Origin: Escherichia coli
GTDB lineage: Bacteria > Pseudomonadota > Gammaproteobacteria > Enterobacterales > Enterobacteriaceae
NCBI GenBank assembly: GCA_025544715.1
Contig: GCA_025544715.1_4109.3
Direction: 5' to 3' (one strand)
Length of the DNA: 64,000 bases
Below, in pieces: positions 1,715 to 60,545 of this stretch (the stretch's first letter is position 1; each line of letters starts with the position of its first letter). Made by a program: the position numbers and the translations under genes. Below the pieces are notes generated by a model. That model ran no database searches. It was not told where the DNA came from and saw only the letters and a program-made list of their open reading frames with translations.

Positions 1715-1745
1715 ATTGTTAAGAAGAACTTTTTGTTCTTCACAT

Positions 1746-2236: not shown

Positions 2237-2237
2237 G

Positions 2238-3859: not shown

Positions 3860-3860
3860 G

Positions 3861-3983: not shown

Positions 3984-3994
3984 AATGCCTCCAA

Positions 3995-4820: not shown

Positions 4821-4996
4821 ATCACATACTTATTACTATGTGGGTCGTAACAATATGAATCATTTACCTTAATACCAGGCTTAAGTTCAATAGTTGTTCC
4901 TGTTTCAGTACTGGATTCCGCATCACAGTAAATCATCACACCAACTCCTGCGAGTAATGCTACGATACATACAATTACACCAATGGTATATTCCAT
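4811..4996 (-). CDS. small membrane protein (61 aa)
   Basis: Single hydrophobic helix IGVIVCIVALLAGVGVMIY. Confidence 0.4.
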   Translation of the reverse strand: MEYTIGVIVCIVALLAGVGVMIYCDAESSTETGTTIELKPGIKVNDSYCYDPHSNKYVICL

Positions 4997-5009
4997 TTCA
5001 ATTCCTCGG

Positions 5010-5405
5010 TTATAAAAAGTAATTATACATTTTATTGTACAATATAAAAAGATCTTTCACATTATCATAAGTAATATCAGATACATCATGAATTAATGAT
5101 AACTGAAAAAATGAAGCTTCGTCTATTTCTGCTGGAATTATAACATCACCATCGTCTTCGTCCATTTTATTAGTGTAGTATTTTATGTGATCTACATTCA
5201 ACTCAATAGAGAACGCAATGTTGGTTTTTGTATAATCTTCAATTAATCCAATATATTGAGATTTTTCATTAATAAAAAATCCAATCCCAATACAACGGTT
5301 ATCTGTATATGGATAGTACCATCTATTAATAACTAGGTGTTCAGGTAAGTCCATATCATGTGTTGATATTAGAGATTTTACAATTTCCATCCAGGAATAA
5401 TTCAT
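5010..5405 (-). CDS. hypothetical protein (131 aa)
   Basis: ORF; GGAG RBS after upstream terminator. Confidence 0.45.
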   Translation of the reverse strand: MNYSWMEIVKSLISTHDMDLPEHLVINRWYYPYTDNRCIGIGFFINEKSQYIGLIEDYTKTNIAFSIELNVDHIKYYTNKMDEDDGDVIIPAEIDEASFFQLSLIHDVSDITYDNVKDLFILYNKMYNYFL

Positions 5406-5420
5406 AATTAAAACTCCATA

Positions 5421-5447
5421 AGAAAAGGGACAGAATTAATCTGTCCC
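5421..5447 (-). terminator. hairpin terminator after hpf-like gene
   Basis: gggacag/ctgtccc stem, 7-nt loop, short T-run on minus strand. Confidence 0.4.
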
Positions 5448-5458
5448 TTTAGTCTATA

Positions 5459-5791
5459 TTACTCTTCGTTTTCTGTCAAATCATCAAGAACTGGGTGTTC
5501 TGGATGGTTTCGGCGGTGTAATTTAATGCTTTTGTCTTTACTGAATACAGTTTCCATCTTATCAAAAGATTCAACAATTGCTTTATACAAATCAGCATCA
5601 TCAGCAGTGACTGATTTACTACCAGCAGTTAAAGTTACAGCATATTGAGTTTTATGCTCTTTCTTAACATGAACACCAATGTCTAGTACTGAAGAAGTAC
5701 GGTACTTATCCAGACTTTTTGCTTCATTGTAAATAGCATCTTGGATTGCTGGAGTGATATCAACGTTGCCTTGAATATTTAGATTTAGCAT
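5459..5791 (-). CDS. hpf: ribosome hibernation factor (HPF/RaiA family) homolog
   Basis: MLNLNIQGNVDITPAIQDAI and DLYKAIVESFDKME resemble the N-terminus and helix of YfiA/HPF; strong AAGGAAGGTGA RBS. Confidence 0.6.
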   Translation of the reverse strand: MLNLNIQGNVDITPAIQDAIYNEAKSLDKYRTSSVLDIGVHVKKEHKTQYAVTLTAGSKSVTADDADLYKAIVESFDKMETVFSKDKSIKLHRRNHPEHPVLDDLTENEE

Positions 5792-5807
5792 ATTTCACCT
5801 TCCTTTT

Positions 5808-6734
5808 TTAGAGTGAACTTAACAACAAATCTGCTCGGTTTGTAACTTGACGATACCATAAGGAATTCATGATTTCTTTTTTAAATTTCTTAGGGTTATC
5901 ATTTTTTACGCTTTTCCAAAGCTTATTAAACGTAGCCAATTTATCGACACCCATTGTATAGGACATTTCAAAAAGAATACGTTGTTGTTCTTTGGTCAGA
6001 TTTACTGCTTCTTTTTTCTGCATCAACAATAAAAAGTCATTATATGTTCTTTTCATATCTTGCATTAAAAGTTTATTGGCTTGAGCTTTGGTAATACCGT
6101 TTCTGTACTTAATCGCATCAGATTCTTTTCTACCCAAATAATGCCCATAACCTATTGTATAATTACCTTTCATGTCCTTGTAGGGATGAAATTTAGAATT
6201 GTGGAAAGGAACTCCGACTTTCCCACCAAGTAAACGGCGTTTGTTCTTGGACTGAAATTCAATTGAACCTTCAGCTTCTTTGATGTGATTGACAATTTCT
6301 GGATCATTATAATCAAACAGTACAGTCACATCTGGTAACAATACGTTCTTCAAATCCTCTTTTGTTGGGATAAAGATACCCTGAGAAGTATGAAGAGTAG
6401 CATTTAAATTGATATTTTTCAACAAAATAACATACTCTTCAAGTTGTACATTTTTAGGTTTAAACTTTTTAGCAATAGAATAATAACTATCACCAGGTTG
6501 AACCGTATAATGCTTCTCGCCGCGTGGAACATCCTTTGATATTTCTACCTTTGGTAATTCCTGCTTTTGAATTTGCGTAACTTGTGGTTTTAAATTGTGT
6601 ACCTGACTTTCGTCCGATGATGATACACGATCATTTTGAGAAAAACCATAAAATCCAATCGCAGCGACAAGTACTGTGCAAACTAGAACACCATAAGTAG
6701 TCTTAGTTTTCAGTGCTTTTTTCGCTTGTTTCAA
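5808..6734 (-). CDS. endolysin: signal-anchor + LysM + T4-type lysozyme
   Basis: N-terminal TM, LysM-like HYTVQPGDSYYSIAKKF, C-terminal GNYTIGYGHYL and WYRQVTNRA matching T4 lysozyme; start re-assigned to TTG with GGAGG RBS (track start 6767 is also TTG). Confidence 0.65.
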   Translation of the reverse strand: MKQAKKALKTKTTYGVLVCTVLVAAIGFYGFSQNDRVSSSDESQVHNLKPQVTQIQKQELPKVEISKDVPRGEKHYTVQPGDSYYSIAKKFKPKNVQLEEYVILLKNINLNATLHTSQGIFIPTKEDLKNVLLPDVTVLFDYNDPEIVNHIKEAEGSIEFQSKNKRRLLGGKVGVPFHNSKFHPYKDMKGNYTIGYGHYLGRKESDAIKYRNGITKAQANKLLMQDMKRTYNDFLLLMQKKEAVNLTKEQQRILFEMSYTMGVDKLATFNKLWKSVKNDNPKKFKKEIMNSLWYRQVTNRADLLLSSL

Positions 6735-6902
6735 AACGCCTCCTTTGTTGATTGTTAAGATGGGCAATCACAAAGATGGCAAAGAGGCCATTTGCAAAAG
6801 CCTCATCGGACTTTCTACAGTACAAAAACGTTCTTTTCAAATGTTTAAGTAGTATAGCATATTTTTATTTTATTACAAGACATATTTACTGTAAAAACCA
6901 CA

Positions 6903-7313
6903 TTAATCGTAGTAGGTTCTACCTACAGTTATGTGATATTTAAAGTACTTGGTTGGTAGTCCTAGTTCGTTTCTAATGTGTGTGATGAAATCATCTTCAA
7001 ATTCAATGATAAAGAATGAACCTGGATTCTTTTTATCTTTTACTATCTCAATAGAAGGATTGAACTTTATCTTTACTTTCATTCCATCGTATTTTTTCCA
7101 GAACTCTTCATGTGGTGGTACTTCACCACGCACTATACTAACATGTGCTCCCCATTGAGGATCTTTAACATCAATATGTAAATCAGTTCTGATGAAGTAC
7201 TGGTAGTATCTAACCAACTGTAATGGAAGTTGTAGTACTAACCAGAAGTCCTTCTTCTTTTTCATAGTGCCACGATCTGGATCATACACCAGAGTTCCTT
7301 CCATTTCAATCAT
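6903..7313 (-). CDS. 2H-phosphoesterase-fold protein (LigT/Acb1-like)
   Basis: Two H-x-[ST]-x motifs, HVSI at His57 and HITV at His127, about 70 residues apart; 136 aa. Confidence 0.45.
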   Translation of the reverse strand: MIEMEGTLVYDPDRGTMKKKKDFWLVLQLPLQLVRYYQYFIRTDLHIDVKDPQWGAHVSIVRGEVPPHEEFWKKYDGMKVKIKFNPSIEIVKDKKNPGSFFIIEFEDDFITHIRNELGLPTKYFKYHITVGRTYYD

Positions 7314-14295: not shown

Positions 14296-14907
14296 TCAAT
14301 CATGTTTATTCAATTTCTTCTGTTCTTTTTTCAAAGCTTTCATATGACGACCAAACTCTCGAACATGCCATAGATGATCGGTTTCCCATAATTCTTGACG
14401 TAACCTACGTTCTTCTAGTAGTTTCGACTTGTCAATGTTATTTTTCTTTTTTTGTACATTAAAGAAATTATTCATATGTTCTTGAAGAAGATTACGACCT
14501 TTAACTTTCTCAAGAAACTCATCAACTGTTTCAGTTTTATTAGAACGTAGTTGATTGCATTTGGAGCACATAGTATTAAAGTTTGTTTCTAAATCAGGAC
14601 CACCCTTAGATGCCAGATGGTTGTGATCAACTGTCATCAACACTTCATAAAGACCACATACAGCATATACATTTAAATGTGGTTTACCATATACTGGATC
14701 AGAACTAAATGAACGTTCAATGCGTACTTCAGTGGCTTCAATCCCACATGCCACGCATTTTGGATTCTTAACAAAAGTAAGAACTTTTTGTGGGAAATAT
14801 CGAAAAGTAATACCATTTAAAGTATAACGTTTCATCTTAGTACTTCGTTGATTTAATTCGTCAAGAAGTGATAATTTTGTCGTATAGTAAACATGATATT
14901 TGTTCAT
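14296..14907 (-). CDS. HNH endonuclease (likely homing endonuclease)
   Basis: CVACG...DHNHLASKGG...N...CSKCNQ HNH/zinc-finger motif; start re-assigned to ATG with AAGGAA RBS (track 14952). Confidence 0.65.
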   Translation of the reverse strand: MNKYHVYYTTKLSLLDELNQRSTKMKRYTLNGITFRYFPQKVLTFVKNPKCVACGIEATEVRIERSFSSDPVYGKPHLNVYAVCGLYEVLMTVDHNHLASKGGPDLETNFNTMCSKCNQLRSNKTETVDEFLEKVKGRNLLQEHMNNFFNVQKKKNNIDKSKLLEERRLRQELWETDHLWHVREFGRHMKALKKEQKKLNKHD

Positions 14908-14908
14908 T

Positions 14909-15217
14909 TTATTCCTTGATATTGATTTTAATATCTTTACCTTGTAAATCACGAATAGTTTTAATTAATGCATCATGTTTTAAAGCACATTCGTTGTATA
15001 CTGCATCCCAACGAGTAAGTACTTTAAGAATTTCTGCACCATCATAACCTTTAAAACCATTTTTGTCAATCATAATTTTTTGTGGTAGAGGTGTATCATC
15101 ATCACATCTTTCTAACAGAATTTCTTGTTTAATTGGTGCAGGGGATTGTAGTTTTACTTGTTCTGCACATCCACTTATAATTAAAAAAGAAATAAACGGA
15201 ACTAATAATTTTTTCAT
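14909..15217 (-). CDS. o-spanin (outer-membrane lipoprotein, Rz1-like)
   Basis: Signal peptide with lipobox ISGC, about 100 aa, start overlaps i-spanin stop (ATGA). Confidence 0.6.
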   Translation of the reverse strand: MKKLLVPFISFLIISGCAEQVKLQSPAPIKQEILLERCDDDTPLPQKIMIDKNGFKGYDGAEILKVLTRWDAVYNECALKHDALIKTIRDLQGKDIKINIKE

Positions 15218-19631: not shown

Positions 19632-20864
19632 TTACTTATACCATTGCATTTCTCTGATATCAATGATAATTTTTGATGCTAATTTAATGTTTGGTTTTTT
19701 GGGAAGTACTGATTTCTTATATAGAACATCACGAATGTATTGTACTTTATCATCGAAATATTCTAATACTTCTTCATACTTCCACTTACCATTACGAATA
19801 TCCATCAACATTTGTGCATCAGGTCGTTTAACTTGAATAATTCCACTCTGTAATGCTTCTTCTGCACTATTCAAAAGTCTAATTGTGTGCATAGCATGTT
19901 TACAATCGTATCCGTGTTGTGATTCTAAAATAGCACGTTTGGCATTACGATTTTCTTTCCATTTATGATAACTTTTCCTATTCTCACTATTCTCCTGATA
20001 TTCTTTTTCGTTAAATTTTACAATTAGTTCTGGTTTGGTTTTCAACTCTTCAGTACTACGTTCTTTAGAAAAATAACGCAATGAACCATCATGGTTAATA
20101 GTGCTTTCATTAGGATTCTTAACAATCGCAAAAATGTTTTCTCCGTAATGAATTAGTTCATAACCATTATTAAAATTCAATAAATTGAAATCACGATCAA
20201 GAATTTTTTCAGTAGTGTAGTTATGTACTAATCTTACGAAATGATATTGCTTTAATGGATTTTTCGAAACTAACTGCAATGATGTATCACGCATATATTT
20301 TTCAAAATCAATCTTTTTAGCATTAAATGGATGTAAGTTGGATGTATCTAAACGTTCAACAAGATACTGTGGGAATGAATCATACATCCACGCAAGAACC
20401 TCATCGACAGGGTGTTCTTCTAAAATCTCATTTAATCGTTTTTCAGCAATACGCTCTTTATCCATCCAACCGTGATGATTTGTCATACGCTTAATCTGAT
20501 TATATGCATATCCAGTGTATGAAAATGCAATCTTGGAACTAAGAAGTTTTTGGTTAAATGAACGAAGATAGTCATAAATTTCAGTACTTTCAACAATGTG
20601 TTCAGGTTCAACCCAAAGTGATTCAAGAATATTAGGGTTAGCTTCAGTGTATAATTTTAAATACTGATTCAACTCATAGAATTTAGTATCTTCTTCGCTT
20701 TTATCAGCTACCTCTTTGACCTTATAGAAGGGTGTAAGAATAAATTCTTTATTAGCAAGAAAAATACCACGATAATCAGTATCACTTTCAGGTGTACTGG
20801 TTCCGTAGGCTTGTGACCCAGCCAAGTGTTTCACTATTGTTTGTTCAATATATTGGTTATTCAT
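19632..20864 (-). CDS. Pol-beta-superfamily nucleotidyltransferase domain protein (410 aa)
   Basis: N-terminal hLAGSQAYGTSTPESDTDYRGIF matches the GS-x9-13-DxD nucleotidyltransferase signature. Confidence 0.5.
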   Translation of the reverse strand: MNNQYIEQTIVKHLAGSQAYGTSTPESDTDYRGIFLANKEFILTPFYKVKEVADKSEEDTKFYELNQYLKLYTEANPNILESLWVEPEHIVESTEIYDYLRSFNQKLLSSKIAFSYTGYAYNQIKRMTNHHGWMDKERIAEKRLNEILEEHPVDEVLAWMYDSFPQYLVERLDTSNLHPFNAKKIDFEKYMRDTSLQLVSKNPLKQYHFVRLVHNYTTEKILDRDFNLLNFNNGYELIHYGENIFAIVKNPNESTINHDGSLRYFSKERSTEELKTKPELIVKFNEKEYQENSENRKSYHKWKENRNAKRAILESQHGYDCKHAMHTIRLLNSAEEALQSGIIQVKRPDAQMLMDIRNGKWKYEEVLEYFDDKVQYIRDVLYKKSVLPKKPNIKLASKIIIDIREMQWYK

Positions 20865-29833: not shown

Positions 29834-31639
29834 TTATTTGTGCTGAATACGCTCACAACACTCTTGTTGTTTGCCTTTATTGAATCCACGCGAAGAAGGA
29901 TTACCCAAGTAACCAGAAACACGACGAATCACTGAGATTGTCTTCTCATTACGATTATCACATACCGGACAGTGGAAACCATGTTTATCTACACTGAACT
30001 CACCCTGGAAGCCACATTCATAACAATGGTCAACGGGTTGGTTAATACCAAAATATGGTATCTTCGTGTAAGCATAGTTAACTAATGTTTCAAGTGCTTG
30101 AATGTTGTTTGCTAAGTTTGGAGATTCAACATAACTGATGTTTCCACCGTTACTTAGGTAAGCAAAGCCTTCTTCATAACTCCATTTATCAAATGGAGAA
30201 CTTTCTACCCATACTGGTTGATGAAAGGAATTTGTGATGTAATCACGTTTTAGTACTGACGGATATTTTGCTTCAATACAACGTGCAAATTTATAACAAA
30301 GTGACTCTGCTGGAGTTCCATATAGACTAAAAGCTATATTACTCTCTTTTTTGAACTCATCACATTTTACTTTCATATAATTCAGTACTGACATACAAAA
30401 CTCCTTACTGATAGAACCAGTGAGGATTTCTGAACATTCAACAAGTCCAACATAACCAATACTAATACTAGCATAACCATTGTAAAATAGCTTGTCAATG
30501 GTTTCTTCTGCACCTAAACGTGCTAATGCACCTTCCATGAACAAAATTGGATTTTGCTTTGCTTTAGTGCCTTTTAAACGCTCTACGCGGTTCATCTGAG
30601 CACGATATGCAATATTCATATGCTCGTCTATCTTATCAAAAAACTCTCCGTCAGAAGCACTCTCAAGAGCAATTAGAGGTAAATTGATAGAAACCACACC
30701 TAAATTGAAACGACCGTTGTATTGTTCATTTCCATTAGAATCTTCCCATTTTCCTAAGAATGAACGACAGCCCATCGGTGTTACCGCAGTACTACTACTT
30801 CCAGTCACTTTGTGATTTAATGGTACGGAAACAAAGTCAGGGTAGATTCGTTTTGATGCACAACGCATAGCTAACTGTTTAAGGTCATAATTACTATCAT
30901 TGGTATTCATGTTTATACCATCTTGTAAAAAGAAAATTACTTTAGGAAACACTGGAGTAATCTTATCTTTACCTAAACCATTCTCATGAACTTTTAAGTA
31001 CTGTTCAGTGATTAATTTACCAAATTTAGAAGTGTTAAGACCTAAACTAAGAGAAATAAATGCAGCTTGACCATTAGTACTAATCATTGAATTAGTTTGG
31101 TAAAGTAATGTTTGGCAGCCATCGTATACTTCTTTTCGTAGTTCTTCTTCAATGAATTCATCACTTAGATTATATTTCTTTTGTTTTTCTAACAGCTTAT
31201 CCCATGACTTTTGAACGTAAGGTTCTAATCCGACATCAATGTGAGCCAAAGATTGACCACCATACTGGGAACTGGCAACAGCTTGGACAATTTGTGTCAG
31301 TACTGTACATGCTACACTAAAACTCTTTGGTTCTTCAATTTTAGCACAACCAATGGTGAATCCATTTTTTAGCATATCTGGGTAGTTAACTAAGCAACAG
31401 TTGGTTAATGGGCTGATATAGTAGTCTAAATCATGGATATGACCATAACCATCATTATGCCACTGCATTAGCTCATTTGGAATAACATCTTGTGAATAAT
31501 GCTTAGATAGGATACCTGCAAGTAAATCCCTGTGTGTATTGACGCATTTCGCATCTTTGTTCGCATTTTCGTTTGTAAGATCAGTATTGCTCTGATTGAG
31601 GAAATTCGTTACGTCAGTATATAATTTATCTAATTGCAT
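29834..31639 (-). CDS. nrdD: anaerobic ribonucleoside-triphosphate reductase (class III)
   Basis: Alignable along its length to T4 NrdD, including LTNENANKD, NCCLV, the C-terminal zinc ribbon CYECG...CPVCD and glycyl-radical tail RVSGYLG; start set to ATG with AAGGAA RBS (track 31702). Confidence 0.9.
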   Translation of the reverse strand: MQLDKLYTDVTNFLNQSNTDLTNENANKDAKCVNTHRDLLAGILSKHYSQDVIPNELMQWHNDGYGHIHDLDYYISPLTNCCLVNYPDMLKNGFTIGCAKIEEPKSFSVACTVLTQIVQAVASSQYGGQSLAHIDVGLEPYVQKSWDKLLEKQKKYNLSDEFIEEELRKEVYDGCQTLLYQTNSMISTNGQAAFISLSLGLNTSKFGKLITEQYLKVHENGLGKDKITPVFPKVIFFLQDGINMNTNDSNYDLKQLAMRCASKRIYPDFVSVPLNHKVTGSSSTAVTPMGCRSFLGKWEDSNGNEQYNGRFNLGVVSINLPLIALESASDGEFFDKIDEHMNIAYRAQMNRVERLKGTKAKQNPILFMEGALARLGAEETIDKLFYNGYASISIGYVGLVECSEILTGSISKEFCMSVLNYMKVKCDEFKKESNIAFSLYGTPAESLCYKFARCIEAKYPSVLKRDYITNSFHQPVWVESSPFDKWSYEEGFAYLSNGGNISYVESPNLANNIQALETLVNYAYTKIPYFGINQPVDHCYECGFQGEFSVDKHGFHCPVCDNRNEKTISVIRRVSGYLGNPSSRGFNKGKQQECCERIQHK

Positions 31640-31774
31640 TGTACATTCCTTGTATTTTGAAATCATCTGGGGGTGAAGATATTTAATATCACCAGACAAC
31701 ATTATAGCGTCAGAACAGGTTATTTCTCTTGACCTATATCAAGGAAAAGTCACATTGGTTTTTATTTGCACAAA

Positions 31775-36920: not shown

Positions 36921-38360
36921 TTACATATTTTCTTCAGCAAATTCAGCCAGTGGTGAACGAACAACACCTTCTAGTTCGATGACACGACAACCTGCCCAGT
37001 CTTTAAACTTCTCAGTTACATAAGTCAAACCACTGTTAACTGGACTAATAAACTTACTGTCAATCTGACTCAAGTTACCCATAATTACTACTTTACAGTT
37101 TAACCCTGCTCGTGTCAAGATGGTTTTTGCTTGTGCAGGTGTAATGTTTTGGAATTCATCAACTACTAGAATAGTGTTGGTGAATGAACGTCCACGTACA
37201 AAGTTTAGTGCTTTAAATTGAATAACATTACGTTTCATAATCTCTTCAATACTACCTTGTGGGTTAGCATCATCTTTATGAAGAAACTCTAACGCATCAA
37301 TCGCGGCTCCACAGAATGGAATCACTTTTTCTGCTTCTGAACCTGGCAAGAAACCAATATCTTCAAACTGTGAGTCTTGAGTTTTAGAGAAGATGATTCG
37401 GTCGTATTTACGTTTTTCCAGTACTAATTCCAATGCAGTAGCAATCGTAATTAGTGTTTTACCAGTACCAGCAGAACCTAGCAGTACTGTTAGATGTACA
37501 TCAGGATCGAGAATACTGTTGATAGCGAGTGCTTGTTGGATATTCTTTGCTTTAATATCCCATACTTTAGCACGTAAAGCCACTGATTGTCCAATGTCTT
37601 GGAATACCAAAATATCTTCTGGTGTTAGTGTTCCATCATCTTCCTCAATTGCTGATTGTCCTTCGTACACAAATAATACGTCAGCATCATCATATAGGTA
37701 ATCACCGATGCATAGATTTTGTGGAAGCAGATGTTCAATCAAGCTTTTAGAAATGTAATGATACAAACGACGACCAACTTGTTCGGATTGAATATTAGTA
37801 TTGGTTAAGTTGCTGTATACTTCCCAAAAATTGATTTCCAGATGGTGTTGACCAATGTGAATCAAATCACTATCACCAATAACAATATCATGGCGATAAT
37901 CTTGTACCTCGACACCATAACTTAGTGCTTTGATACGCATGTTGATATCACGAGTTACCAGTACTGATTCTGTTGCTAAAGCTACCAGAATGATTTTATC
38001 ATCAGGTACAGTACTTTTGAGAAGGGTTTGAACTTTCTCTTCTGTACCTTTAGTACGAATTAGTGCCTCAGCTTCTTCGTTTGTAATAACAAACAATTTG
38101 CTATCAGGATTCATATTGGTATGAACATCAGCAATATTAACACCAGTACTACTAATCTCGTCATGTGATGCATCTGCAATAATTGCTTCAATGTTACGAA
38201 TAGCAACACGTGCATCGCGTGAAACATCTACATTACGACTCTTAATCGAATCTAATTCTTCCAGTACTGTAAATGGTAGAATGATTGCAGCACCATCAAA
38301 AGCAATAGATGCATTAGGGTCAGATAGTAGTACGTTTGTGTCAATTGTATATTTTTTCAT
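36921..38360 (-). CDS. phoH: PhoH-like ATPase with N-terminal PIN domain
   Basis: N-terminal PIN-like IDTNVLL...D, Walker A GSAGTGKT, 479 aa. Confidence 0.8.
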   Translation of the reverse strand: MKKYTIDTNVLLSDPNASIAFDGAAIILPFTVLEELDSIKSRNVDVSRDARVAIRNIEAIIADASHDEISSTGVNIADVHTNMNPDSKLFVITNEEAEALIRTKGTEEKVQTLLKSTVPDDKIILVALATESVLVTRDINMRIKALSYGVEVQDYRHDIVIGDSDLIHIGQHHLEINFWEVYSNLTNTNIQSEQVGRRLYHYISKSLIEHLLPQNLCIGDYLYDDADVLFVYEGQSAIEEDDGTLTPEDILVFQDIGQSVALRAKVWDIKAKNIQQALAINSILDPDVHLTVLLGSAGTGKTLITIATALELVLEKRKYDRIIFSKTQDSQFEDIGFLPGSEAEKVIPFCGAAIDALEFLHKDDANPQGSIEEIMKRNVIQFKALNFVRGRSFTNTILVVDEFQNITPAQAKTILTRAGLNCKVVIMGNLSQIDSKFISPVNSGLTYVTEKFKDWAGCRVIELEGVVRSPLAEFAEENM

Positions 38361-39049: not shown

Positions 39050-39601
39050 CTATAGATAACTAATTAGTAAGTTTTCTTTTTGAACCAGATACTCCAATTC
39101 TTGTTTTGCTGTACCGATGAAGTTCTGTGTCATAAGATTATTATATCCCGCTTCTCGATTTTGTCCCTTAGAATAACGAGAAATATGACATAAATTTACA
39201 CCAGCAACTTCAGCACTCGCATGTTTAGCATTAGTGTATCCATCTCTAATGTGTTTCAACTCGTCATAGCTTACTTCATAGCTAAAACTATGACTGTTTG
39301 CACCTGGGTAAATTTCAAAAGTTTTGAGTGGTCGGAGATGGGAAACAAAAATATTGTAATCCATTTCTTCTTGAACTTCACGACGCAATGCATCTTCTAA
39401 TGAGATATCAGTACTTTCTACGGTTCCACCACATCCACCAAGAAGACCATCCCATCGTAATTGTAGTAAAACTAAATTTACTTCTGGTATATCATTCAAC
39501 TCATAGTTTTTGTAAGGGTTGCATTTTCTTGCAAAGAAATAACAAAATACAAAATTTGCACGTGAGCCATATTCACCAAAGGGAACTTCTTTAACACTCA
39601 T
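39050..39601 (-). CDS. Nudix hydrolase (183 aa)
   Basis: Nudix box GGCGGTVESTDISLEDALRREVQEEM; ATGA overlap with Sir2 gene. Confidence 0.55.
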   Translation of the reverse strand: MSVKEVPFGEYGSRANFVFCYFFARKCNPYKNYELNDIPEVNLVLLQLRWDGLLGGCGGTVESTDISLEDALRREVQEEMDYNIFVSHLRPLKTFEIYPGANSHSFSYEVSYDELKHIRDGYTNAKHASAEVAGVNLCHISRYSKGQNREAGYNNLMTQNFIGTAKQELEYLVQKENLLISYL

Positions 39602-40356
39602 TTCATACGTTCCTTAATTATAGTCTCTAGATGTGGTATTGCTTTGGTTGCTGGCTTGATAACTTTTTCATTAAACAAAAAATCATTATCATTTTTACGA
39701 ATGTTAACATTAACACTATAACATGGCAATGCTGCTGCTAATCTCGACCATACCAGTACTGTATCGCTACTACCAATTACAATAACTGTATCATTTTCAT
39801 TAAGAGATTTCAACACATTATTTCGTTCTTCGTAAATTGGTAAGCGAATACCATCAACATAACGATGATATTCTCCAATCATTACTACATTTGGTTTAGC
39901 AAAAACATCATGCTTTGGTATGTATGGTTCGTATCCGCAGTTAATAACATTATAATCATCGGAATTAATACTATAATTTTCAATAACTTCGCACAAGTTT
40001 CCATGAAGTTTAAGCTCATGACCACCAATACGAGTATAAAGATCATCCATGTTAGAAGTCATATGAAGGAAGCAATCACCATATTGATCTTCTAACGATT
40101 TTATAAAATAATGCATTGCATTGGGTTCGCATTGTCCCAATTTTACACGTAATGTATTATAGAAGGAATGAACAACGTGATATTTTGTAGTTAAACTAGC
40201 AATGTTACATACATCATTAATTTTAAATGTATCCCACAAACCATCATCAAATCGAAAAGGTTCCATACCACTTTCAACGGAAAGTCCTGCACCTGATATA
40301 ATCAGTAATCGTTTTTTACCTTCATTGCTTATAAATTTTTCTGATATCATATTCAA
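39598..40356 (-). CDS. Sir2-family (sirtuin-fold) NAD-binding protein
   Basis: ISGAGLSVESGMEPFR (GAGIS..SG.P.FR) and SNMDDLYTRIGGHELKLHG (NxDxL...LHG catalytic His); no zinc-ribbon CxxC pairs seen. Confidence 0.6.
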   Translation of the reverse strand: MNMISEKFISNEGKKRLLIISGAGLSVESGMEPFRFDDGLWDTFKINDVCNIASLTTKYHVVHSFYNTLRVKLGQCEPNAMHYFIKSLEDQYGDCFLHMTSNMDDLYTRIGGHELKLHGNLCEVIENYSINSDDYNVINCGYEPYIPKHDVFAKPNVVMIGEYHRYVDGIRLPIYEERNNVLKSLNENDTVIVIGSSDTVLVWSRLAAALPCYSVNVNIRKNDNDFLFNEKVIKPATKAIPHLETIIKERMK

Positions 40357-42141: not shown

Positions 42142-42287
42142 ATATAGTACTTAAACACTTAAGTCAAACTTTTTCTGTACTTAACTCAAATTTCCCTCAT
42201 CAGATAATCCCCTTAGTACAATCACTGTGAAGATTCTATCACAAACCCATACCAAATGTAAAGCTTTTTTTATAAGGAGTGCCCTTC

Positions 42288-44213
42288 ATGGGAAAACCAA
42301 TTGCAGGACAAGACCAATTTCCATTCACTATAGGTGGATATTTAGTTGATGGTGCAAACATAAAAGGTACAACATATGTAAAATCGTTGTACATCTACAA
42401 ACAGCGTTCCTCTGATTTGTATGATTTAATGGATTCAAATGGAACAATATATCGTTTTATTCGTATTGTTGGATATGGTCAAGATGGTAACAGATTAAAT
42501 TATTTTACACCAGCAGAAGAAATTGTACCAAATCTGGCGACCAATACATTTTTTATAAAAGTTCAAGATGCTGAAAGAAATATATTTTCATTTGTTAGAT
42601 TGTACCAATTAAATAAAATAATAACATTCGATGGTGATTATATTTTTAGAAAAATAGATAAAGATCGTTATCTAAGTGGTGTGTTAATTCAACCATCATT
42701 AACTACATTACAAGTTGGTAAAACCAGTTCACTGCATTGTGTATTCTACCCTAATGATTACTATGATACTGATGGAACTTGGTACATAAACGACCATTCT
42801 GATATAAATCCAGAAATACCTAGTAAGTATGCTAAAATCATAGAATATAATAAAAATGAAGTATCTATTGAAGGAACATCGGTGGGTATGTCAATACTTT
42901 CATTTGTTCCTAAAAATAATAAATCCATAATTTCACATTCTCTTATTAACATTGTTAATGAAAATGTAGATATAGAATACATGGTTGCCGAAAGAAGTTC
43001 TCCATTTTTTAATCATTATATTGGCAATGAATGGACTATTCAAATAGTCACATATCCGTATGACGCGACTATACAATACCCTCTTGAAATCGTAATCGAT
43101 GCGGAAGTAGATCCTTATATGAAAATTGCCACTACCGAGTTAGTTGGAGTCTCTGAAAATAATAAAATATATACATTTAAATCAACACTTGAGCCAGATT
43201 TAGAATATTATATAGATTATTATCCACAAATCACCTTCACTATGAATGAACCTTACAAATTTAGTGCATTGTTTGAAAATAAAATTTGTTTGTCTGGTTG
43301 GGAAAGATATTGTGAAAAAATTACCAGTCCTGGAAAGTTATTTTCTATTGATGAATATGTACGTCCAAACACGACTAAAACATTAAAATATTGGTTAATG
43401 AATGATTATGACCAACATATGTATCCAATACGTTCAACTGATGATGAAATTGCCACAATTGATGTAACAACTGGTATATTGAGAACTTACGATAAAAGAG
43501 GAACAGTATCTTTCTATACAAATTATACTGATATAACTACTGGGGCCATTAGTCAAGATGAATATTTAGTTGGGAAACTAACCGTTACAGACGATGTGTA
43601 CGATTTAATCGAGGTAGAACCATCAAATATACAATATATGTTCCCAAATCAATCACAACAATTCACGTTAACTGGTTATAGAGAAGGTTATCCAAATACA
43701 TCTTTTAATGTTAATGTAAGTATGTTGAACAATTATGCAACTTCTTCAAACAATATCGTCACTATTAACGAAAATACATCTAATAACTCTAGATTTAAGA
43801 TAGTATCAGATTTCAATGGTAATTATAAAAACTTTAGTAGTATATATTCTAATCAAACACCATCTATTATAGTAAAAACAAATCCAAATGATTTAACTCC
43901 AATACAAAGTATTGATGTTTCTGAAAATGAAATTTTATCTATAAGAATGGCTGAAGAAAATGAAATAGATGATTATAAAGTTAGTTTTTATCCAAAACCA
44001 AATTATTGTGTTAATTATGAACTTGAAATTGTATCATATGATAATACTATAATTGAAATATATGATAAAGAAAATGCATTAAAAAACGGGCTAAATTATT
44101 ATGGTAATATTATGTTATACATAACACCAAAAAGTCCTGGAAGTACCGAGATTGTTGTTAGATCTGTTCATTACCCAGATGTACAACAATCTGTAAAAGT
44201 AGTTGTTTATTAA
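42288..44213 (+). CDS. virion-surface-type protein with bacterial Ig-like (Big_2-like) repeats
   Basis: ATG with AAGGAG RBS (track gives GTG at 42279); segments such as IQPSLTTLQVGKTSSLHCVFYPND and the C-terminal block fit Big_2-like patterns; N-terminal 110 aa duplicated in next gene. Confidence 0.5.
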   Translation: MGKPIAGQDQFPFTIGGYLVDGANIKGTTYVKSLYIYKQRSSDLYDLMDSNGTIYRFIRIVGYGQDGNRLNYFTPAEEIVPNLATNTFFIKVQDAERNIFSFVRLYQLNKIITFDGDYIFRKIDKDRYLSGVLIQPSLTTLQVGKTSSLHCVFYPNDYYDTDGTWYINDHSDINPEIPSKYAKIIEYNKNEVSIEGTSVGMSILSFVPKNNKSIISHSLINIVNENVDIEYMVAERSSPFFNHYIGNEWTIQIVTYPYDATIQYPLEIVIDAEVDPYMKIATTELVGVSENNKIYTFKSTLEPDLEYYIDYYPQITFTMNEPYKFSALFENKICLSGWERYCEKITSPGKLFSIDEYVRPNTTKTLKYWLMNDYDQHMYPIRSTDDEIATIDVTTGILRTYDKRGTVSFYTNYTDITTGAISQDEYLVGKLTVTDDVYDLIEVEPSNIQYMFPNQSQQFTLTGYREGYPNTSFNVNVSMLNNYATSSNNIVTINENTSNNSRFKIVSDFNGNYKNFSSIYSNQTPSIIVKTNPNDLTPIQSIDVSENEILSIRMAEENEIDDYKVSFYPKPNYCVNYELEIVSYDNTIIEIYDKENALKNGLNYYGNIMLYITPKSPGSTEIVVRSVHYPDVQQSVKVVVY

Positions 44214-44229: not shown

Positions 44230-44607
44230 ATGAAAGCTATAGCAGCACAAGGTAAATTACCATTCAATATCGGCGGCTTTTGTGTAACCGCAGCTAATAT
44301 AAACGGTGAATTGAAATATAACTTGAACATCTTTAATCAACGTTCTAGTTGTGTTTACGATCTTATCGACACTGATTTTAATGTTTATCGTTTTGTAACT
44401 ATAACAAGTTTTGATAAAGATAAAATCAGATTAGACGCATCTAAAACTGCACTAGAGATTGCACCAACTTTAGCAAAAAATACTTTTTGTATTAAGATTG
44501 ATGATAGTGCATTTGCCGAATCATTCCAGTTTCATAAAATTAAATTGAGTACTGGAGAAATGAAATATCACCCTTGGGATTTGTATTATTGTAACATCCC
44601 TGGTTAA
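44230..44607 (+). CDS. standalone paralog of the N-terminal domain of 42288..44213 (125 aa)
   Basis: Shares G.LPF.IGG..V..ANI.G...Y, QRSS.vYDLiD, YRFV.I, NTFcIK; AAGAGGAAA RBS. Confidence 0.5.
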   Translation: MKAIAAQGKLPFNIGGFCVTAANINGELKYNLNIFNQRSSCVYDLIDTDFNVYRFVTITSFDKDKIRLDASKTALEIAPTLAKNTFCIKIDDSAFAESFQFHKIKLSTGEMKYHPWDLYYCNIPG

Positions 44608-51085: not shown

Positions 51086-52288
51086 TTATAGATAATACTT
51101 TCCAATATAAAGTGGATTACTAATTGATAGTTGAACGTGACACGGCTTATCTTGGTAGTAACGAGAACTTGATGTTTTGCGTTCATTTGGTGGGAAGAAT
51201 GGTGAACGATAACCGTTCCATGTACTAAATGATGTGTGCTCATTAATATCAACATCCATTGACATAATTCCATTATCATCAATTTGAACTGGGTATGCAC
51301 TAAAGCGTTCAAATTTATCATTATAATGAATATTATAATCCCCGCTACGTCCATAATAACTACGTGTTGTATTATTACTTACACCAAAAAATACGCGATA
51401 AGATTGTTCATTATCTTTAGTCATAAATGGTACGTTCTCGTTGAAACGTCCATTATTCATAAGATCATCAACATTTATTTCTTCATATTTAATTTTTAGG
51501 TCTTTTGCTTTAAATGATTTATTGTGTACCAGTACTGGAATGTTAGATTCACCTAATGGGTTATGTCTGTTTGTTCTATAGCTTTGCCAAAATTCATTAG
51601 CAAGTTTAATTTCTTCATCTGCCGTAGTCTTCTTATTCAAGAGTGCACGAGGTTCCAGATTGTAATTATCCAAACGTTGATTCAATGCATAAGTTCCACG
51701 AGTACTGTTATAAAGTAAATGATAAACAGAACTTTTGTCGGGGTATGCAAATTCTTTAGTTTTCTTTATACAAATTGCATGTACTTTACCGCAGTAATAG
51801 TAATCTTCTTTGAGATACGTGAAGCCATCACCAACTTTAAGACCTGCTACAGTTTCTTTTTGTTGTTCTTTTTTATTTTCTTTTTCAACTAACTTAGCAA
51901 ATGTTTTTGTTTTACCATTAATTAATTCTAAGTTATTGTTGAAAAACATTGGGTCTACAAAAACACCTTTGATTATATCGTTATTGATAATTAAATCATT
52001 CATGTTTTTGGCACTAATCATAAATTCAAATCCTTCTGGGTGACGGATTGTGAAATATGTTTCTCGTGCATGAATTGTTAATTTATCAACTACACAAAAT
52101 CCAGTAGTTGGAACGTTGTCAATATATAACGATGGAAGATTGTTCTTCTTTGCCCAGTACTCTGCTCTCTCTTTCTTTGTTTCAAACGCTTTTGTATGTG
52201 ATTTTGTTGCATCGATAATAAAACCATCAACTTGGTTGTGGTTTACATAGGAACGTGCAACAAATAACTTCTCTGGAAAATCCATCAA
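51086..52288 (-). CDS. hypothetical protein (400 aa)
   Basis: Long ORF; no motif recognised. Confidence 0.5.
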   Translation of the reverse strand: MMDFPEKLFVARSYVNHNQVDGFIIDATKSHTKAFETKKERAEYWAKKNNLPSLYIDNVPTTGFCVVDKLTIHARETYFTIRHPEGFEFMISAKNMNDLIINNDIIKGVFVDPMFFNNNLELINGKTKTFAKLVEKENKKEQQKETVAGLKVGDGFTYLKEDYYYCGKVHAICIKKTKEFAYPDKSSVYHLLYNSTRGTYALNQRLDNYNLEPRALLNKKTTADEEIKLANEFWQSYRTNRHNPLGESNIPVLVHNKSFKAKDLKIKYEEINVDDLMNNGRFNENVPFMTKDNEQSYRVFFGVSNNTTRSYYGRSGDYNIHYNDKFERFSAYPVQIDDNGIMSMDVDINEHTSFSTWNGYRSPFFPPNERKTSSSRYYQDKPCHVQLSISNPLYIGKYYL

Positions 52289-52704
52289 ATAGTCCTCATT
52301 GTACTGATTGCTTTTAGTGTGTCAAACAATGCACCATATTTTACTTGCATTAGTTGATCACCCGCAGGAAGATTCATACGCATAACAGCCATGTCTTCAA
52401 TCATTTCAGACGTACACAGTACTGCTACACAGGTAATAGCATCATTTAATCCAGCTTCATTGAATTTGGCAAAAGGAACTTTTCCCTGTTTGCTAAGGTT
52501 GTTATAATAAGAATTTAATTTATCATGTCCACCAGCATTTAGTACTACAATAGTTTCGTGTTCATAGTACCATTCATCAATAATAGTACTGAAAGCAGTA
52601 CCTTCATATTCTTTAATTAGTTTAACACCAGCATGGAATGCTTGAATACCAGCTTGGACACCTTGACAGTACATATTAGTTAAGCAATACAATTTCATTT
52701 CCAT
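52285..52704 (-). CDS. hypothetical protein (139 aa)
   Basis: ORF. Confidence 0.45.
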   Translation of the reverse strand: MEMKLYCLTNMYCQGVQAGIQAFHAGVKLIKEYEGTAFSTIIDEWYYEHETIVVLNAGGHDKLNSYYNNLSKQGKVPFAKFNEAGLNDAITCVAVLCTSEMIEDMAVMRMNLPAGDQLMQVKYGALFDTLKAISTMRTI

Positions 52705-57340: not shown

Positions 57341-57368
57341 AGAAAAAGGGACCAACATATGATCCCTT
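57341..57368 (-). terminator. hairpin terminator after pseT
   Basis: aaaaggga/tccctttt stem followed by T-rich run on minus strand. Confidence 0.4.
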
Positions 57369-57373
57369 TTGTA

Positions 57374-58306
57374 TTAGAAATTTCCTTCTGCAACTTGAAA
57401 AACTTTCAAGCCAAGTAGTTTACGCCACATGAATACAACTTGATCGCGGTCATCATAAACCTTTTTAACATCGTAATGATCAACCACATTTTTCATGTAC
57501 AGGTCGAATTTTACAACATCATCGGGACGTTTATCATCGATGTCTCGCATAAACAATGCATCGTAAGGAACACCCCAATTCTTAAGCCACTGTTCGGTAT
57601 CAGCACGACACCCTTCAGTACGCCCACTCATGACGATAATCTTGCGTTTATGAAAAACTGCTTCAGCGATAATAGACAAAATAACTTCTTCATCTGGTGT
57701 ATCCTGAAGAACAGTACTTTCATCGTAAGGATTACGACCCCATTTATGAGCAAGAGTACCGTCAATATCAACGATAACAGCAGCTTCTCGTGAATTACCA
57801 TAGTAACCAATGTGCATGGCCTTACTATAATAGTACGTATCTGCCATAGTGTCAATGATATTATCTTGTACAGAACGCTCACGCATGAGGTTACGTTTCT
57901 TACAAAGTTTTACGAACTCTTTAATCTTAAAGAAAACATGAACATCTGCACCACGATCTTCATTCGGTACAAAATCTTCGTAGAAGTTCTTTTCTTTGTA
58001 GTCGTATTCATTATCTTTAGCCCAACGTTTCCATTCATCACGGAAATGTTGTTTAAGGTTCGTATCGGACACAATGATGTTCCAACCATTCTCTGCTGCT
58101 GAATTTGCTGCACTGAACTGCATTTTAGTTACGTACTGCTCATTAGCGTCGTTGAATTTGTATGCATCATGTGACCCAGCCATAGATTCACGAATATCAT
58201 CACGGTTGATGTTGATAGTCTTTGATTTGGCATTTTTAATTTCTTGAACTGCCCATGTAGTTTTACCACAACCAGGCAACCCAACTGTTAGTGTAATAGT
58301 TGGCAT
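57374..58306 (-). CDS. pseT: polynucleotide 5'-kinase/3'-phosphatase
   Basis: Walker A GLPGCGKTT, phosphatase DxDGT motif IVDIDGTLA; overall similarity to T4 Pnk. Confidence 0.85.
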   Translation of the reverse strand: MPTITLTVGLPGCGKTTWAVQEIKNAKSKTININRDDIRESMAGSHDAYKFNDANEQYVTKMQFSAANSAAENGWNIIVSDTNLKQHFRDEWKRWAKDNEYDYKEKNFYEDFVPNEDRGADVHVFFKIKEFVKLCKKRNLMRERSVQDNIIDTMADTYYYSKAMHIGYYGNSREAAVIVDIDGTLAHKWGRNPYDESTVLQDTPDEEVILSIIAEAVFHKRKIIVMSGRTEGCRADTEQWLKNWGVPYDALFMRDIDDKRPDDVVKFDLYMKNVVDHYDVKKVYDDRDQVVFMWRKLLGLKVFQVAEGNF

Positions 58307-58318
58307 TATTACTCCTTG

Positions 58319-58633
58319 TTACTCAATGAATTCAACATCTTCGAGTTTGTGCCATCCTCTTGAAAGGTTTCTTGTTCCGTTATTGTATTCAGTGTATACA
58401 AAGCATTCACCATTTACTAAATTACCAATAGCAGTACGCGATACTTTAACATCAAGAATTATAGTACTGAACCATTCTCTGATTGTATGATCCCAGCATT
58501 TAACTTTACATCCAATCAATGTTTTCTTAAAATCGAAAACGTAATCTTCGACCATTGATTCGACAGATTCTATTAGTTCCTTTTCAATGTACTTTAACTT
58601 TTCGATCCTCTCAAATGCAAGTTCTTTATTCAT
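58319..58633 (-). CDS. small protein, LIGxxV family member
   Basis: KTLIGCKVKCWD motif. Confidence 0.45.
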   Translation of the reverse strand: MNKELAFERIEKLKYIEKELIESVESMVEDYVFDFKKTLIGCKVKCWDHTIREWFSTIILDVKVSRTAIGNLVNGECFVYTEYNNGTRNLSRGWHKLEDVEFIE

Positions 58634-58639
58634 ATGTCC

Positions 58640-58894
58640 TCAATTATCTAGAACATCCACTATCAAACAAGCTTCAATAACGAAACAATCATCTAATTCA
58701 AAGAGTAATTGATAGTCATCAGAAAACTTCACTTTAGTAATGTAAGCACTTTCAATTCCACCACTATGATAAGAACTATATAAAATACATTTACCTGTAT
58801 ATTCCTTACGGATACGACTAAATTCTTCATATAAATGAGTAATAAACGTATCCGCAGTTTTGTTGTAGTATTTTAGGTCACTTACTGTGCTCAT
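58640..58894 (-). CDS. small protein, LIGxxV family member
   Basis: KEYTGKCILYSS motif. Confidence 0.4.
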   Translation of the reverse strand: MSTVSDLKYYNKTADTFITHLYEEFSRIRKEYTGKCILYSSYHSGGIESAYITKVKFSDDYQLLFELDDCFVIEACLIVDVLDN

Positions 58895-59108
58895 TAACTT
58901 TTCCTACTCCAAATCGTTTGGAGATTTTCACAAGTACAGATTCATCACAACGAATACTAGCTGTATCATTGGATGAACTGTACTTTAATGGGGTCCACTG
59001 TAATTGAGATTCTTCTAGGAACTTGATACATCTGAAGTAATCTTTCAGAGAAAGAAATTTAACTACTGACATATCCTGAACAATACTATGCTGAACTTCA
59101 ACTTTCAT
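58878..59108 (-). CDS. hypothetical protein (76 aa)
   Basis: ORF. Confidence 0.4.
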   Translation of the reverse strand: MKVEVQHSIVQDMSVVKFLSLKDYFRCIKFLEESQLQWTPLKYSSSNDTASIRCDESVLVKISKRFGVGKVNEHSK

Positions 59109-59117
59109 ATGAACTCC

Positions 59118-59375
59118 TTATAGTGGATCAAATTTATTTTCACGTTTCGATGTATAGCGAGTTACATCATGTATTCTCGGCTTAACACCTTTTGGTTTCC
59201 TTTTCTTCTTGTATTCAGTACTACTACATCCGAAGGTATTCTCGATTCGTTTCTTACTTATCTTCACACCTTTCATTGAGCGTTTGTGCTGTAATTCATC
59301 GATTTCTTCTTGTATTTTCCTGAACTCAGTCGGAGAAAGGGAACCGTCATTTTTATACTTAGGTTTAGCCATCAC
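59118..59375 (-). CDS. hypothetical basic protein (85 aa)
   Basis: Lys/Arg-rich. Confidence 0.4.
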   Translation of the reverse strand: MMAKPKYKNDGSLSPTEFRKIQEEIDELQHKRSMKGVKISKKRIENTFGCSSTEYKKKRKPKGVKPRIHDVTRYTSKRENKFDPL

Positions 59376-59402
59376 TTCTCCTTGTGCTTAGGCTAGATAG
59401 TA

Positions 59403-60545
59403 CTAAAAATCCTTTAGTACAATTTTCATGTATTTTATAAGAGTCTCTTTGTAATCAACTTTCTTATTGTTATACATTGCAAAGGCCAAGCCCTGACGAT
59501 TCAGTTCATTAGTTAAACACTCCTGAACCTTCATTGCGAATTCCTTTCGCTCCAAGTGCTTGTGTTCCTTGACGAAGCTTTCTACTTCATCTTGTAATGC
59601 ATTATAGCACGAAAATACCAATTGTTCCATTCTTAATATCTTTTGCATAGCATATTCATCAGTACTGAACAATTGTTTTAAATCATCACTTGAACCATTT
59701 AATACGGCTTCATATAAATGAGAATCAATAATAATACTATCTTTTGTAAGATGTAATGAACTGTACCAGTCAGTCTTTATTTTACACATTGTTCCATTAT
59801 TTAGGATGCACACAAAACCCTCAATATCAAGCATTTTATGAACTTCCTCCACGCTTTCACGGAAGGTATTTCGTACCGGAAAAGTGTGATGAATATCTTT
59901 TCCTGTCATATTAGTACTGTACTGTGCAAGACATGGAAACTTATCACGTAGTGCTTTACCACATAGCAACTCACCACTCACACGATGTCGAACGTTCAGT
60001 ACAAACAGTTGTTCTACCTGATATGGTAATACAATTCGGTACTCTGGGCTTGTATACTCCATATTAACTGTGTAACCTAAACGTTCCGCTTCGTCGATGT
60101 ACTGATACAAATTCTGGTTCTCGTTAATAAGTCGAGTACTGTTAATCGCATGGTCAGAATACAATGCAGTATGTGATTTACAACGAATCTCACCATCATT
60201 ATCACGATAAGTACTGATGATCGAACCATCCAACTTAGGCATAACTACCGCAATGTCATCGCATGTGGTGTTAGCAGGGAACATTGTAGCAGGATTCTCG
60301 TAAGCATTAAAGAACTTTTTCATTGTACGTGCTGCACAACGTATCATGTCACCTTCTTCATCAATTTCCCACATAGAGCCACGGGTTTCCAACGCATTTG
60401 GTTGCATGAAATCAGTGTATGATGCTAGACGATAACTGAATACACGATACGTACCACCAGCAGGACTTTTATGATCCACATAAAAGAACGCATCGTTTGT
60501 ATTACATAAGTGCATTAAATCTTCATATATTTGCAAAAGGGTCAT
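59403..60545 (-). CDS. rnlA: RNA ligase 1
   Basis: Adenylation motif KLDGS and N-terminal similarity to T4 RnlA (GGTYRVFSY, ETRG, KFFN). Confidence 0.85.
   Translation of the reverse strand: MTLLQIYEDLMHLCNTNDAFFYVDHKSPAGGTYRVFSYRLASYTDFMQPNALETRGSMWEIDEEGDMIRCAARTMKKFFNAYENPATMFPANTTCDDIAVVMPKLDGSIISTYRDNDGEIRCKSHTALYSDHAINSTRLINENQNLYQYIDEAERLGYTVNMEYTSPEYRIVLPYQVEQLFVLNVRHRVSGELLCGKALRDKFPCLAQYSTNMTGKDIHHTFPVRNTFRESVEEVHKMLDIEGFVCILNNGTMCKIKTDWYSSLHLTKDSIIIDSHLYEAVLNGSSDDLKQLFSTDEYAMQKILRMEQLVFSCYNALQDEVESFVKEHKHLERKEFAMKVQECLTNELNRQGLAFAMYNNKKVDYKETLIKYMKIVLKDF

Follow-up and report, generated by a model that had tools for sequence, protein, structure and literature searches.

There is active interest in bacterial defences that cut tRNA, such as PrrC, RloC, PARIS and OLD, and the hosts open to a therapeutic jumbo phage are determined by phage repair genes. 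In phage T4, the products of pseT (Pnkp) and rnlA (Rnl1) make up a tRNA repair pathway directed against the PrrC anticodon nuclease (Amitsur, Levitz and Kaufmann, 1987, as cited in PMC7247149). Here we describe homologues of both genes, together with a CCA-type tRNA nucleotidyltransferase, a 2H phosphoesterase and an RlaP-family nucleotidyltransferase, in a 64,000-nucleotide stretch of DNA (hereafter the window) from the Escherichia coli assembly GCA_025544715.1 (contig GCA_025544715.1_4109.3).

Related gene complements have been discussed in jumbo phages. Phage phAPEC6 was proposed to counter Prr (Wagemans, 2020; PMC7247149), and the related phage CBB was reported to carry rnlA and a second RNA ligase with a possible role in tRNA repair (Buttimer et al., 2017; PMC5259590). 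Section 3.4.9 of Iyer, Anantharaman, Krishnan, Burroughs and Aravind (2021; PMC7824862) lists as jumbo-phage RNA-repair parts the Rnl1/Rnl2 ATP-grasp RNA ligases, PNK-HAD, 2H, RlaP, the CCA-adding enzyme, PTH2, PhoH and macro domains; the repair parts listed in that section are all present in the window.

Phage Identity and RNA-Maintenance Genes

The window covers 64 kb of the genome of an Asteriusvirus, one of the 121Q/PBECO4-like jumbo myoviruses that infect E. coli within the Rak2-like group, and thus represents a strain of a published phage group. By megablast, the two regions holding the pseT-rnlA and the CCA and 2H genes are 97–98% identical in DNA, over their full length, to Escherichia phage 121Q, whose genus is Asteriusvirus. 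The same identity was found with slurp01, phAPEC6, PBECO4, G17, Sharanji and some 30 further records, which without exception belong to jumbo coliphages or Salmonella phages. The window corresponds to the reverse complement of approximately 198–262 kb of 121Q and is colinear with positions 194,832–255,132 of phage ECO103 4-12-1.

We consider it about 75% probable that two separate RNA-maintenance gene sets are present, one at 57.3–60.5 kb that constitutes a classical T4 heal-and-seal pair, and another at 0.2–7.3 kb that forms a conserved 2H/CCA block. The four genes on which this reading turns are:

57374..58306, minus strand: Pnkp/PseT, a bifunctional polynucleotide 5'-kinase/3'-phosphatase for end healing (310 amino acids; Pfam, PHROG and PDB matches)
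59403..60545, minus strand: Rnl1/RnlA, a T4-type RNA ligase 1, the sealing enzyme (380 amino acids; Pfam, NCBIfam and PDB matches)
2747..3859, minus strand: class II CCA-type tRNA nucleotidyltransferase (370 amino acids; head and neck like E. coli Cca)
6903..7313, minus strand: standalone 2H phosphoesterase of the 2H-SAK type (136 amino acids)

An earlier reading made from the sequence alone (the sequence-only reading) had proposed these same four open reading frames (ORFs), and all of them lie on the minus strand, at exactly the coordinates that it had given. As it had said, pseT is close to rnlA, at a distance of 1.1 kb with four small ORFs in between; the CCA and 2H genes are about 50 kb away. 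Homology searches, chosen beforehand as the test on which the proposal would stand or fall, support both the CCA-enzyme and the RNA ligase assignments. In GenBank and RefSeq, genes of the phage group are already labelled 'RNA ligase (and tail fiber protein attachment catalyst)', 'polynucleotide kinase' and 'tRNA nucleotidyltransferase / CCA-adding enzyme'. The tRNA-repair gene set is therefore correct but already known, having been annotated and interpreted in this way for the phage group, and its recognition adds little. Our additions are the conserved order of genes in the 2H-CCA neighbourhood, the lack of an HD site in the CCA enzyme, the count of phage tRNAs without an encoded CCA, and the RlaP gene.

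The rnlA-pseT Unit

The Pnkp homologue consists of an N-terminal P-loop 5'-kinase (Pfam AAA_33, 4e-14, residues 5–157) fused to a C-terminal HAD (DxDxT) 3'-phosphatase (HAD_PNKP, 7.6e-44, residues 175–310), which is the T4 type of architecture. It matches phrog_505 (6e-97) and aligns end to end with the structure of T4 Pnkp (1LTQ, E 1.2e-38). In a global alignment with T4 PseT, with 34% identity over the full length, we observed conservation of the kinase residues K15/T16 (P-loop), D36, R39 and D81, and of the phosphatase residues D180-x-D182-x-T184, R191, S227, R229, D262, D285 and D286.

The ligase carries both RNA_lig_T4_1 (PF09511) and the C-terminal tRNA-specificity domain T4_Rnl1_C (PF20819; 6.6e-17, residues 268–379). 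It scores above the cutoff of the NCBIfam equivalog TIGR02308 (292.6 vs 242.25 bits) and matches the T4 Rnl1 structure 2C5U with an E-value of 1.5e-56. The predicted adenylylated lysine is K104, within the motif KLDGS. The residues that we took as essential in T4 Rnl1 reportedly come from mutational work in the Shuman laboratory, and counterparts of R54, K75, F77, K99, G102, E159, E227, G228, K240 and K242 are kept at an overall identity of 36% to T4 RnlA.

The two genes belong to a co-directional array with the following additional features:

58319..59375, minus strand: four small ORFs (104, 84, 76 and 85 amino acids) between rnlA and pseT; the PHROG families that they match are of unknown function throughout
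57344..57370, minus strand: strong terminator-like hairpin with an 11-bp stem followed by a T run, beginning 4 nt past the pseT stop codon

The intervening ORFs overlap or are separated by no more than about 30 bases, and the annotation of phage G17 lists a terminator under the same region as the hairpin at the end of pseT. This spacing, together with the hairpin, makes a single rnlA-pseT transcription unit likely, and the hairpin probably marks its end. A scan for sigma-70 promoters around rnlA and pseT returned matches no more numerous than in shuffled sequence. The idea that the small ORFs around the two genes form a paralogous family found no blastp support at E 1e-4.

This locus resembles its T4 counterpart in several respects. 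Both enzyme families and their domain architecture are the same, catalytic residues are conserved, and in T4 the genes rnlA, alc, pseT.3, pseT.2, pseT.1 and pseT likewise follow one another on one strand, as do rnlA, four small ORFs and pseT in the window. However, the spacer genes are unrelated to those of T4 (blastp recovered no similarity of the four ORFs to alc or pseT.1-3), and the proteins are only 34–36% identical. The sequence-only reading had proposed a gene order unlike that of T4, which holds at the scale of the genome but not locally. It had also said that the fibre genes differ from those of T4, and the annotation of the phage group bears this out. At odds with our comparisons is its description of several enzymes as close T4 homologues, since the identities reach only 31–46%:

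Pnkp, 34%; Rnl1, 36%; DNA ligase, 31%
Cd (dCMP deaminase), 41%; NrdD, 42–43%; NrdG, 46%

Unlike T4, the window phage is a 350-kb Rak2-like jumbo phage outside the Tevenvirinae. No Stp-like activator of PrrC was noticed in it, though no search was aimed at one.

RlaP and the Proposed Heal-and-Seal Pathway

A further gene with a possible place in end repair was missed by the sequence-only reading:

19632..20864, minus strand: RlaP-family ('RNA ligase-associated') Pol-beta nucleotidyltransferase (Pfam PF10127, 6.3e-16)

Its score of 59.2 bits lies well above the PF10127 gathering threshold of 23, in an alignment that covers only profile positions 24–144 of 249. The Pol-beta motif G-S ... D-x-D reads LAGSQAYG...SDTDY in the translation, and in 121Q the RefSeq label of the gene is just 'nucleotidyltransferase'. 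Members of the family add one or two nucleotides to a damaged RNA 3'-OH and restore the aminoacylation of over-trimmed tRNA (preprint, PMC12776372). The window protein is accordingly a predicted enzyme that would add back one or two nucleotides at damaged RNA 3' ends before ligation.

A pathway can be proposed from these assignments. A PrrC-type host anticodon nuclease would leave a 2',3'-cyclic phosphate and a 5'-OH in the anticodon loop of its target tRNA. The HAD phosphatase domain of Pnkp would strip the 3' phosphate and its P-loop kinase domain would phosphorylate the 5'-OH, after which Rnl1, adenylylated on K104, would reseal the loop. RlaP could restore nucleotides lost at the break. 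The CCA enzyme would rebuild tRNA 3'-CCA ends or make them anew, and the 2H enzyme would most likely open 2',3'-cyclic phosphate ends.

A Conserved 2H-CCA Gene Block

To place the second gene set, we used 16 IMG/VR viral contigs that encode a 2H homologue (52–99% identical), onto which the window proteins were mapped by tblastn, with a more distant metagenomic phage (L007) as an extra locus. Across Rak2-like phages the order is 2H, LysM-lysozyme, HPF, CCA, NUDIX, glutaredoxin, macro domain and a possible PTH2-like gene, corresponding to 213..7313 in the window. The members other than 2H, lysozyme and CCA are as follows:

5459..5791, minus strand: HPF/RaiA-type ribosome-associated factor between the lysozyme and CCA genes (annotation of 121Q gp533; Pfam Ribosomal_S30AE on the syntenic L007 gene)
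2238..2639, minus strand: NUDIX hydrolase (Pfam, PHROG; block position)
1988..2236, minus strand: glutaredoxin (Pfam, PHROG; block position)
931..1407, minus strand: macro domain protein related to ADP-ribose 1''-phosphate phosphatases (PDB sequence matches 2FG1, 8e-16, and 6LFU, 9e-7)
213..590: tentative second PTH2-like gene (31% identity to a homologue with a Pfam PTH2 match)

We observed this order with little variation. The lysozyme gene follows 2H at 16 of the 16 loci; CCA, NUDIX and glutaredoxin are each present at 15 and macro at 14, and the loci without one of these four are contigs that end before the position in question. At every related locus that extends far enough, NUDIX and glutaredoxin come immediately after the CCA gene, and the more distant L007 has the same block order. 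The possible PTH2-like gene was found at 13/16 loci, and HPF was detected by tblastn at only two. The protein encoded by 213..590 has no Pfam match and no PDB match, and a Pfam PTH2 match is present in only 2 of 11 members of its family.

Directly upstream of the 2H gene, an Rnl2-type RNA ligase (PF09414) is present at 14/16 loci and a DUF2828 protein at 15/16, both of them also in L007; a YqeY gene follows glutaredoxin at ten of the 16 loci and in L007. The 2H and CCA genes thus belong to a conserved block that is headed, in most relatives, by a second RNA ligase. The Rnl2-type ligase, DUF2828 and YqeY are missing from the block both in the 121Q locus and in the window. In the complete genome of ECO103 4-12-1, tblastn found no gene for an Rnl2-type ligase, HAD, PRTase_3, DUF2828 or YqeY. 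Asteriusviruses have lost the Rnl2-type ligase, DUF2828 and YqeY from the block. Neither the fixed order of 2H, lysozyme, HPF, CCA, NUDIX, glutaredoxin and macro nor the Asteriusvirus loss of the Rnl2-type ligase and DUF2828 appears in the accessible sections of Iyer et al. (2021; PMC7824862). DUF2828 was also considered as a TROVE/Ro-like protein, which could not be confirmed, as it had no PDB sequence match.

Between the CCA and HPF genes stand two, possibly three, tandem paralogues on the minus strand (3995..4417, 4404..4820 and perhaps 5010..5405). The first two share a C-terminal '(D/E)DTFGID(Y/F)' segment, with 44% identity over 50 residues (E 1e-11); the similarity of the third is only marginal.

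The CCA Enzyme and Phage tRNAs

The CCA enzyme matches PolyA_pol in its head (1.7e-18), PolyA_pol_RNAbd in its neck (3.4e-8) and phrog_2244 (1.8e-116). Identity to E. coli K-12 Cca is 52% over residues 1–207, and the motifs GGxVRD, the DxD pair, the ARTERKxGxGYxGF loop, RRDLTINA and EDPLRVLR of that enzyme are visible. The best NCBIfam match, PRK10885, reaches 274.8 bits against a cutoff of 451 and covers only profile positions 1–207 of 409; the protein falls under the cutoff of all nine related NCBIfam models. Its scores of 275 bits against Cca models and 91 bits against PcnB models favour the former, a comparison that cannot by itself fix addition of C-C-A as opposed to other nucleotides. 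There was no Pfam HD match, and the HD motif region of E. coli Cca (LCHDLGK) falls in a gap when 12 phage enzymes are aligned with the E. coli protein by profile. As judged from these alignments, the phage enzyme lacks the HD phosphohydrolase site found in E. coli Cca.

CCA-type enzymes occur in 494 phage records, mostly of large phages. The full-length form of the window enzyme, with its C-terminal half, was found in only about 72 Rak2-like phage records. This number is close to the 77 with the 2H gene, so that the two are distributed over phages in nearly the same way.

The close relative ECO103 4-12-1, for which a complete genome is available, has seven predicted tRNA genes (31069..34895 of L016). 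The 3'-CCA is encoded in those for Met, Arg(UCU) and Ser(UGA) and missing from those for Thr(UGU), Asn(GUU), Gly(UCC) and a doubtful Ser(ACU), which leaves three or four of the seven without it. No tRNA-Lys gene is among the seven predictions, so a cut of the PrrC type could not be bypassed by means of a phage tRNA. Thr(UGU), one of the seven, corresponds to the preferred cleavage target of P2-OLD among isoacceptors (PMC12445682).

The 2H Protein

The window 2H protein scores 25.6 bits against Pfam 2H-SAK (PF22547), slightly under the gathering threshold of 27; among 28 database homologues, 25 have a precomputed match to this family. Both its motifs, H57-x-S59 and H127-x-T129, show no or almost no variation among 26 aligned homologues. 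The AlphaFold model is confident (predicted local distance difference test, pLDDT, 90.2), and in it we observed the 2H fold: the two H-x-T/S motifs that define the superfamily sit on a pseudo-twofold beta core. A search of PDB sequences returned no real match. The gene has 77 phage matches, and all annotated records among the 60 listed call the product a 'hypothetical protein'. With a profile, 1165 representative clusters were retrieved, mostly of standalone proteins of 130–170 residues. The protein is predicted to be a cyclic phosphodiesterase whose targets would be either cyclic nucleotides or 2',3'-cyclic phosphate ends.

Several lines of genomic context bear on its role. A fusion to a YqeY (GatB-like) domain is seen in one homologue. 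The 2H gene of Vibrio phage 2.275.O is flanked by tRNA genes and a CCA enzyme gene at distances of 4–6 kb, and that of Agrobacterium phage Atu_ph07 has a gene annotated 'tRNA amidotransferase' two genes away. Together with the position in the block, the fusion and these neighbours support, only through guilt by association, a tie between the 2H protein and RNA maintenance. Points of possible bench value are this uncharacterised 2H-SAK family with its 1165 clusters, its fixed placement with an HD-less CCA enzyme, and the Asteriusvirus loss of the Rnl2-type ligase and DUF2828 genes.

Alternative Explanations

A number of observations weigh against the reading of two RNA-maintenance gene sets. 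We infer from homology every biochemical activity, every substrate and every role against host nucleases that this reading assigns. The region around T4 Pnkp R126 is unalignable in the window protein, which has an insertion alongside, and K119 of T4 Rnl1 is replaced by H125. T4 Pnkp deals with cyclic phosphate ends unaided, having its own 2',3'-cyclic phosphodiesterase activity according to a RefSeq note; a 2H protein is thus not required for healing of the T4 type. The conserved block also contains lysozyme and several genes of unknown function and is therefore not purely an RNA module, and some cellular 2H homologues adjoin NurA/HerA, which are DNA-related genes. Finally, the two sets are about 50 kb apart, so the 'complete toolkit' of the sequence-only reading was that reader's grouping and not an operon. 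The gene identities behind it hold, but the genes are spread over 58 kb, the 2H protein is unneeded for the T4 pathway, and RlaP had been left out.

Individual members of the two sets may also have other main roles. T4 gp63 additionally promotes tail-fibre attachment, and a homologue of Rnl1 could serve mainly in virion assembly, in which case its presence need not imply tRNA repair. The PHROG and RefSeq family name, 'RNA ligase and tail fiber protein attachment catalyst', agrees with such a function, but we regard it as very unlikely here, given conserved ligase active-site residues, a tRNA-specificity domain, linkage to pseT as in T4, and fibres annotated as unlike those of T4. The case is much more balanced for the CCA enzyme, whose main job has in our view an even chance of being the finishing of the phage's own tRNAs and not the repair of host tRNAs. 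The tRNA genes of ECO103 4-12-1 that lack an encoded CCA, and the frequency of CCA enzymes among large phages, point in this direction. To our knowledge all E. coli tRNA genes encode the 3'-CCA, and host Cca capacity may for that reason be limiting for the phage. Finishing is thus at least as likely as host tRNA repair. The two roles are not exclusive, as one enzyme would serve both. On the other side, about 160 kb separate the tRNA genes from the CCA gene, whose company in the block (2H, macro, PTH2-like and, in relatives, an RNA ligase) better fits repair or rescue.

For the 2H protein, we favour the processing of RNA 2',3'-cyclic phosphate ends, an assignment that is tentative and falls somewhat short of even odds; besides the two rival substrates considered next, we leave a small share of probability for some other role. 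It could instead be a counter-defence phosphodiesterase similar to Acb1, destroying the cyclic oligonucleotide alarm signals of the cyclic-oligonucleotide-based antiphage signalling system (CBASS) or of type III CRISPR, with no relation to tRNA ends. Acb1 is the second structure match in BFVD and comes first, marginally, in the fold comparison; no T4 Acb1 homologue was found in the ECO103 4-12-1 genome, where the role would be vacant; and 2H enzymes are named among counter-nucleotide defences by Iyer et al. (2021; PMC7824862). We nonetheless consider this unlikely. There is no sequence relationship to T4 Acb1 (gp57B; hhalign probability 0.4%, and nothing meaningful by blastp), the sequence family is Pfam 2H-SAK, named for RNA-repair proteins, and the neighbours and fusions point to tRNA (RNA ligase, DUF2828, CCA enzyme, YqeY and PTH2). 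Unlike the gene for Acb1 (T4 gp57B; PDB 7T27), the window 2H gene has a neighbourhood rich in tRNA-related genes. Doubtful to a greater degree is joint action of the 2H and macro proteins on small molecules derived from NAD, with 2H opening ADP-ribose 1'',2''-cyclic phosphate and macro removing the 1''-phosphate, as in the by-product pathway of yeast and plant tRNA splicing, or alternatively with ADP-ribose-based defence signals being degraded. The two genes are 3–6 kb apart in the window, in 14/16 Rak2-like loci, in Bacillus phage G and in Agrobacterium phage Atu_ph07, and the macro protein matches the ADP-ribose 1''-phosphate phosphatase 6LFU. However, they are never adjacent, 1FSI is a weaker structural match to the 2H protein than Acb1, ns2 or Usb1, and no Tpt1/KptA gene was noticed in the window or in the 121Q annotation there, though no direct search was made. 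A more specific form of RNA-end processing seems to us equally improbable: the 2H-SAK protein and the HD-less CCA enzyme would form a split, phage-specific pathway of tRNA 3'-end repair, in which 2H opens or removes a 2',3'-cyclic phosphate on acceptor stems cut by host 3'-end nucleases and CCA is then rebuilt. The 2H protein may in that case take over a job that in E. coli is ascribed to the HD domain of Cca, a domain lost from the phage enzyme. Across Rak2-like phages the order of the two genes relative to each other is fixed.

Other Genes in the Window

Several further genes in the window may be related to RNA or NAD:

52285..52704, minus strand: tentative candidate for a PTH2-type peptidyl-tRNA hydrolase (Pfam PTH2, 2.1e-5, 25.2 bits vs a cutoff of 23)
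36921..38360, minus strand: PIN-PhoH fusion protein (Pfam)
39050..40356, minus strand: adjacent pair of a Sir2-family protein and a Nudt16-like NUDIX hydrolase (Pfam)

The PTH2 candidate, for which a PDB sequence search gave no match, would tentatively free peptides from broken or stalled peptidyl-tRNA. The PIN-PhoH protein and the Sir2/NUDIX pair may be RNA- or NAD-related counter-defence genes. The stretch 51086..52704 (minus strand) includes a 400-amino-acid ORF, without a Pfam match, which has the DNA ligase gene on one side and the PTH2-like 'hydrolase' gene on the other.

An ORF of 644 amino acids (42279..44213, plus strand) lies, together with 44230..44607 (plus strand), on the strand opposite to almost all other genes. 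Its first approximately 165 residues resemble Ig-domain structural proteins of Rak2-like phages. The remaining approximately 480 residues and their DNA matched nothing in 50,697 phage records, close relatives included, and the ORF has no Pfam match; 121Q and ECO103 have just a short gene at this position. It probably encodes a virion decoration or fibre protein that is specific to this strain and has a new C-terminal domain.

The nrdD gene (29834..31702, minus strand) is one uninterrupted ORF, whereas a group I intron with I-TevII interrupts T4 nrdD. An HNH endonuclease gene is located elsewhere in the window, at 14296..14952.

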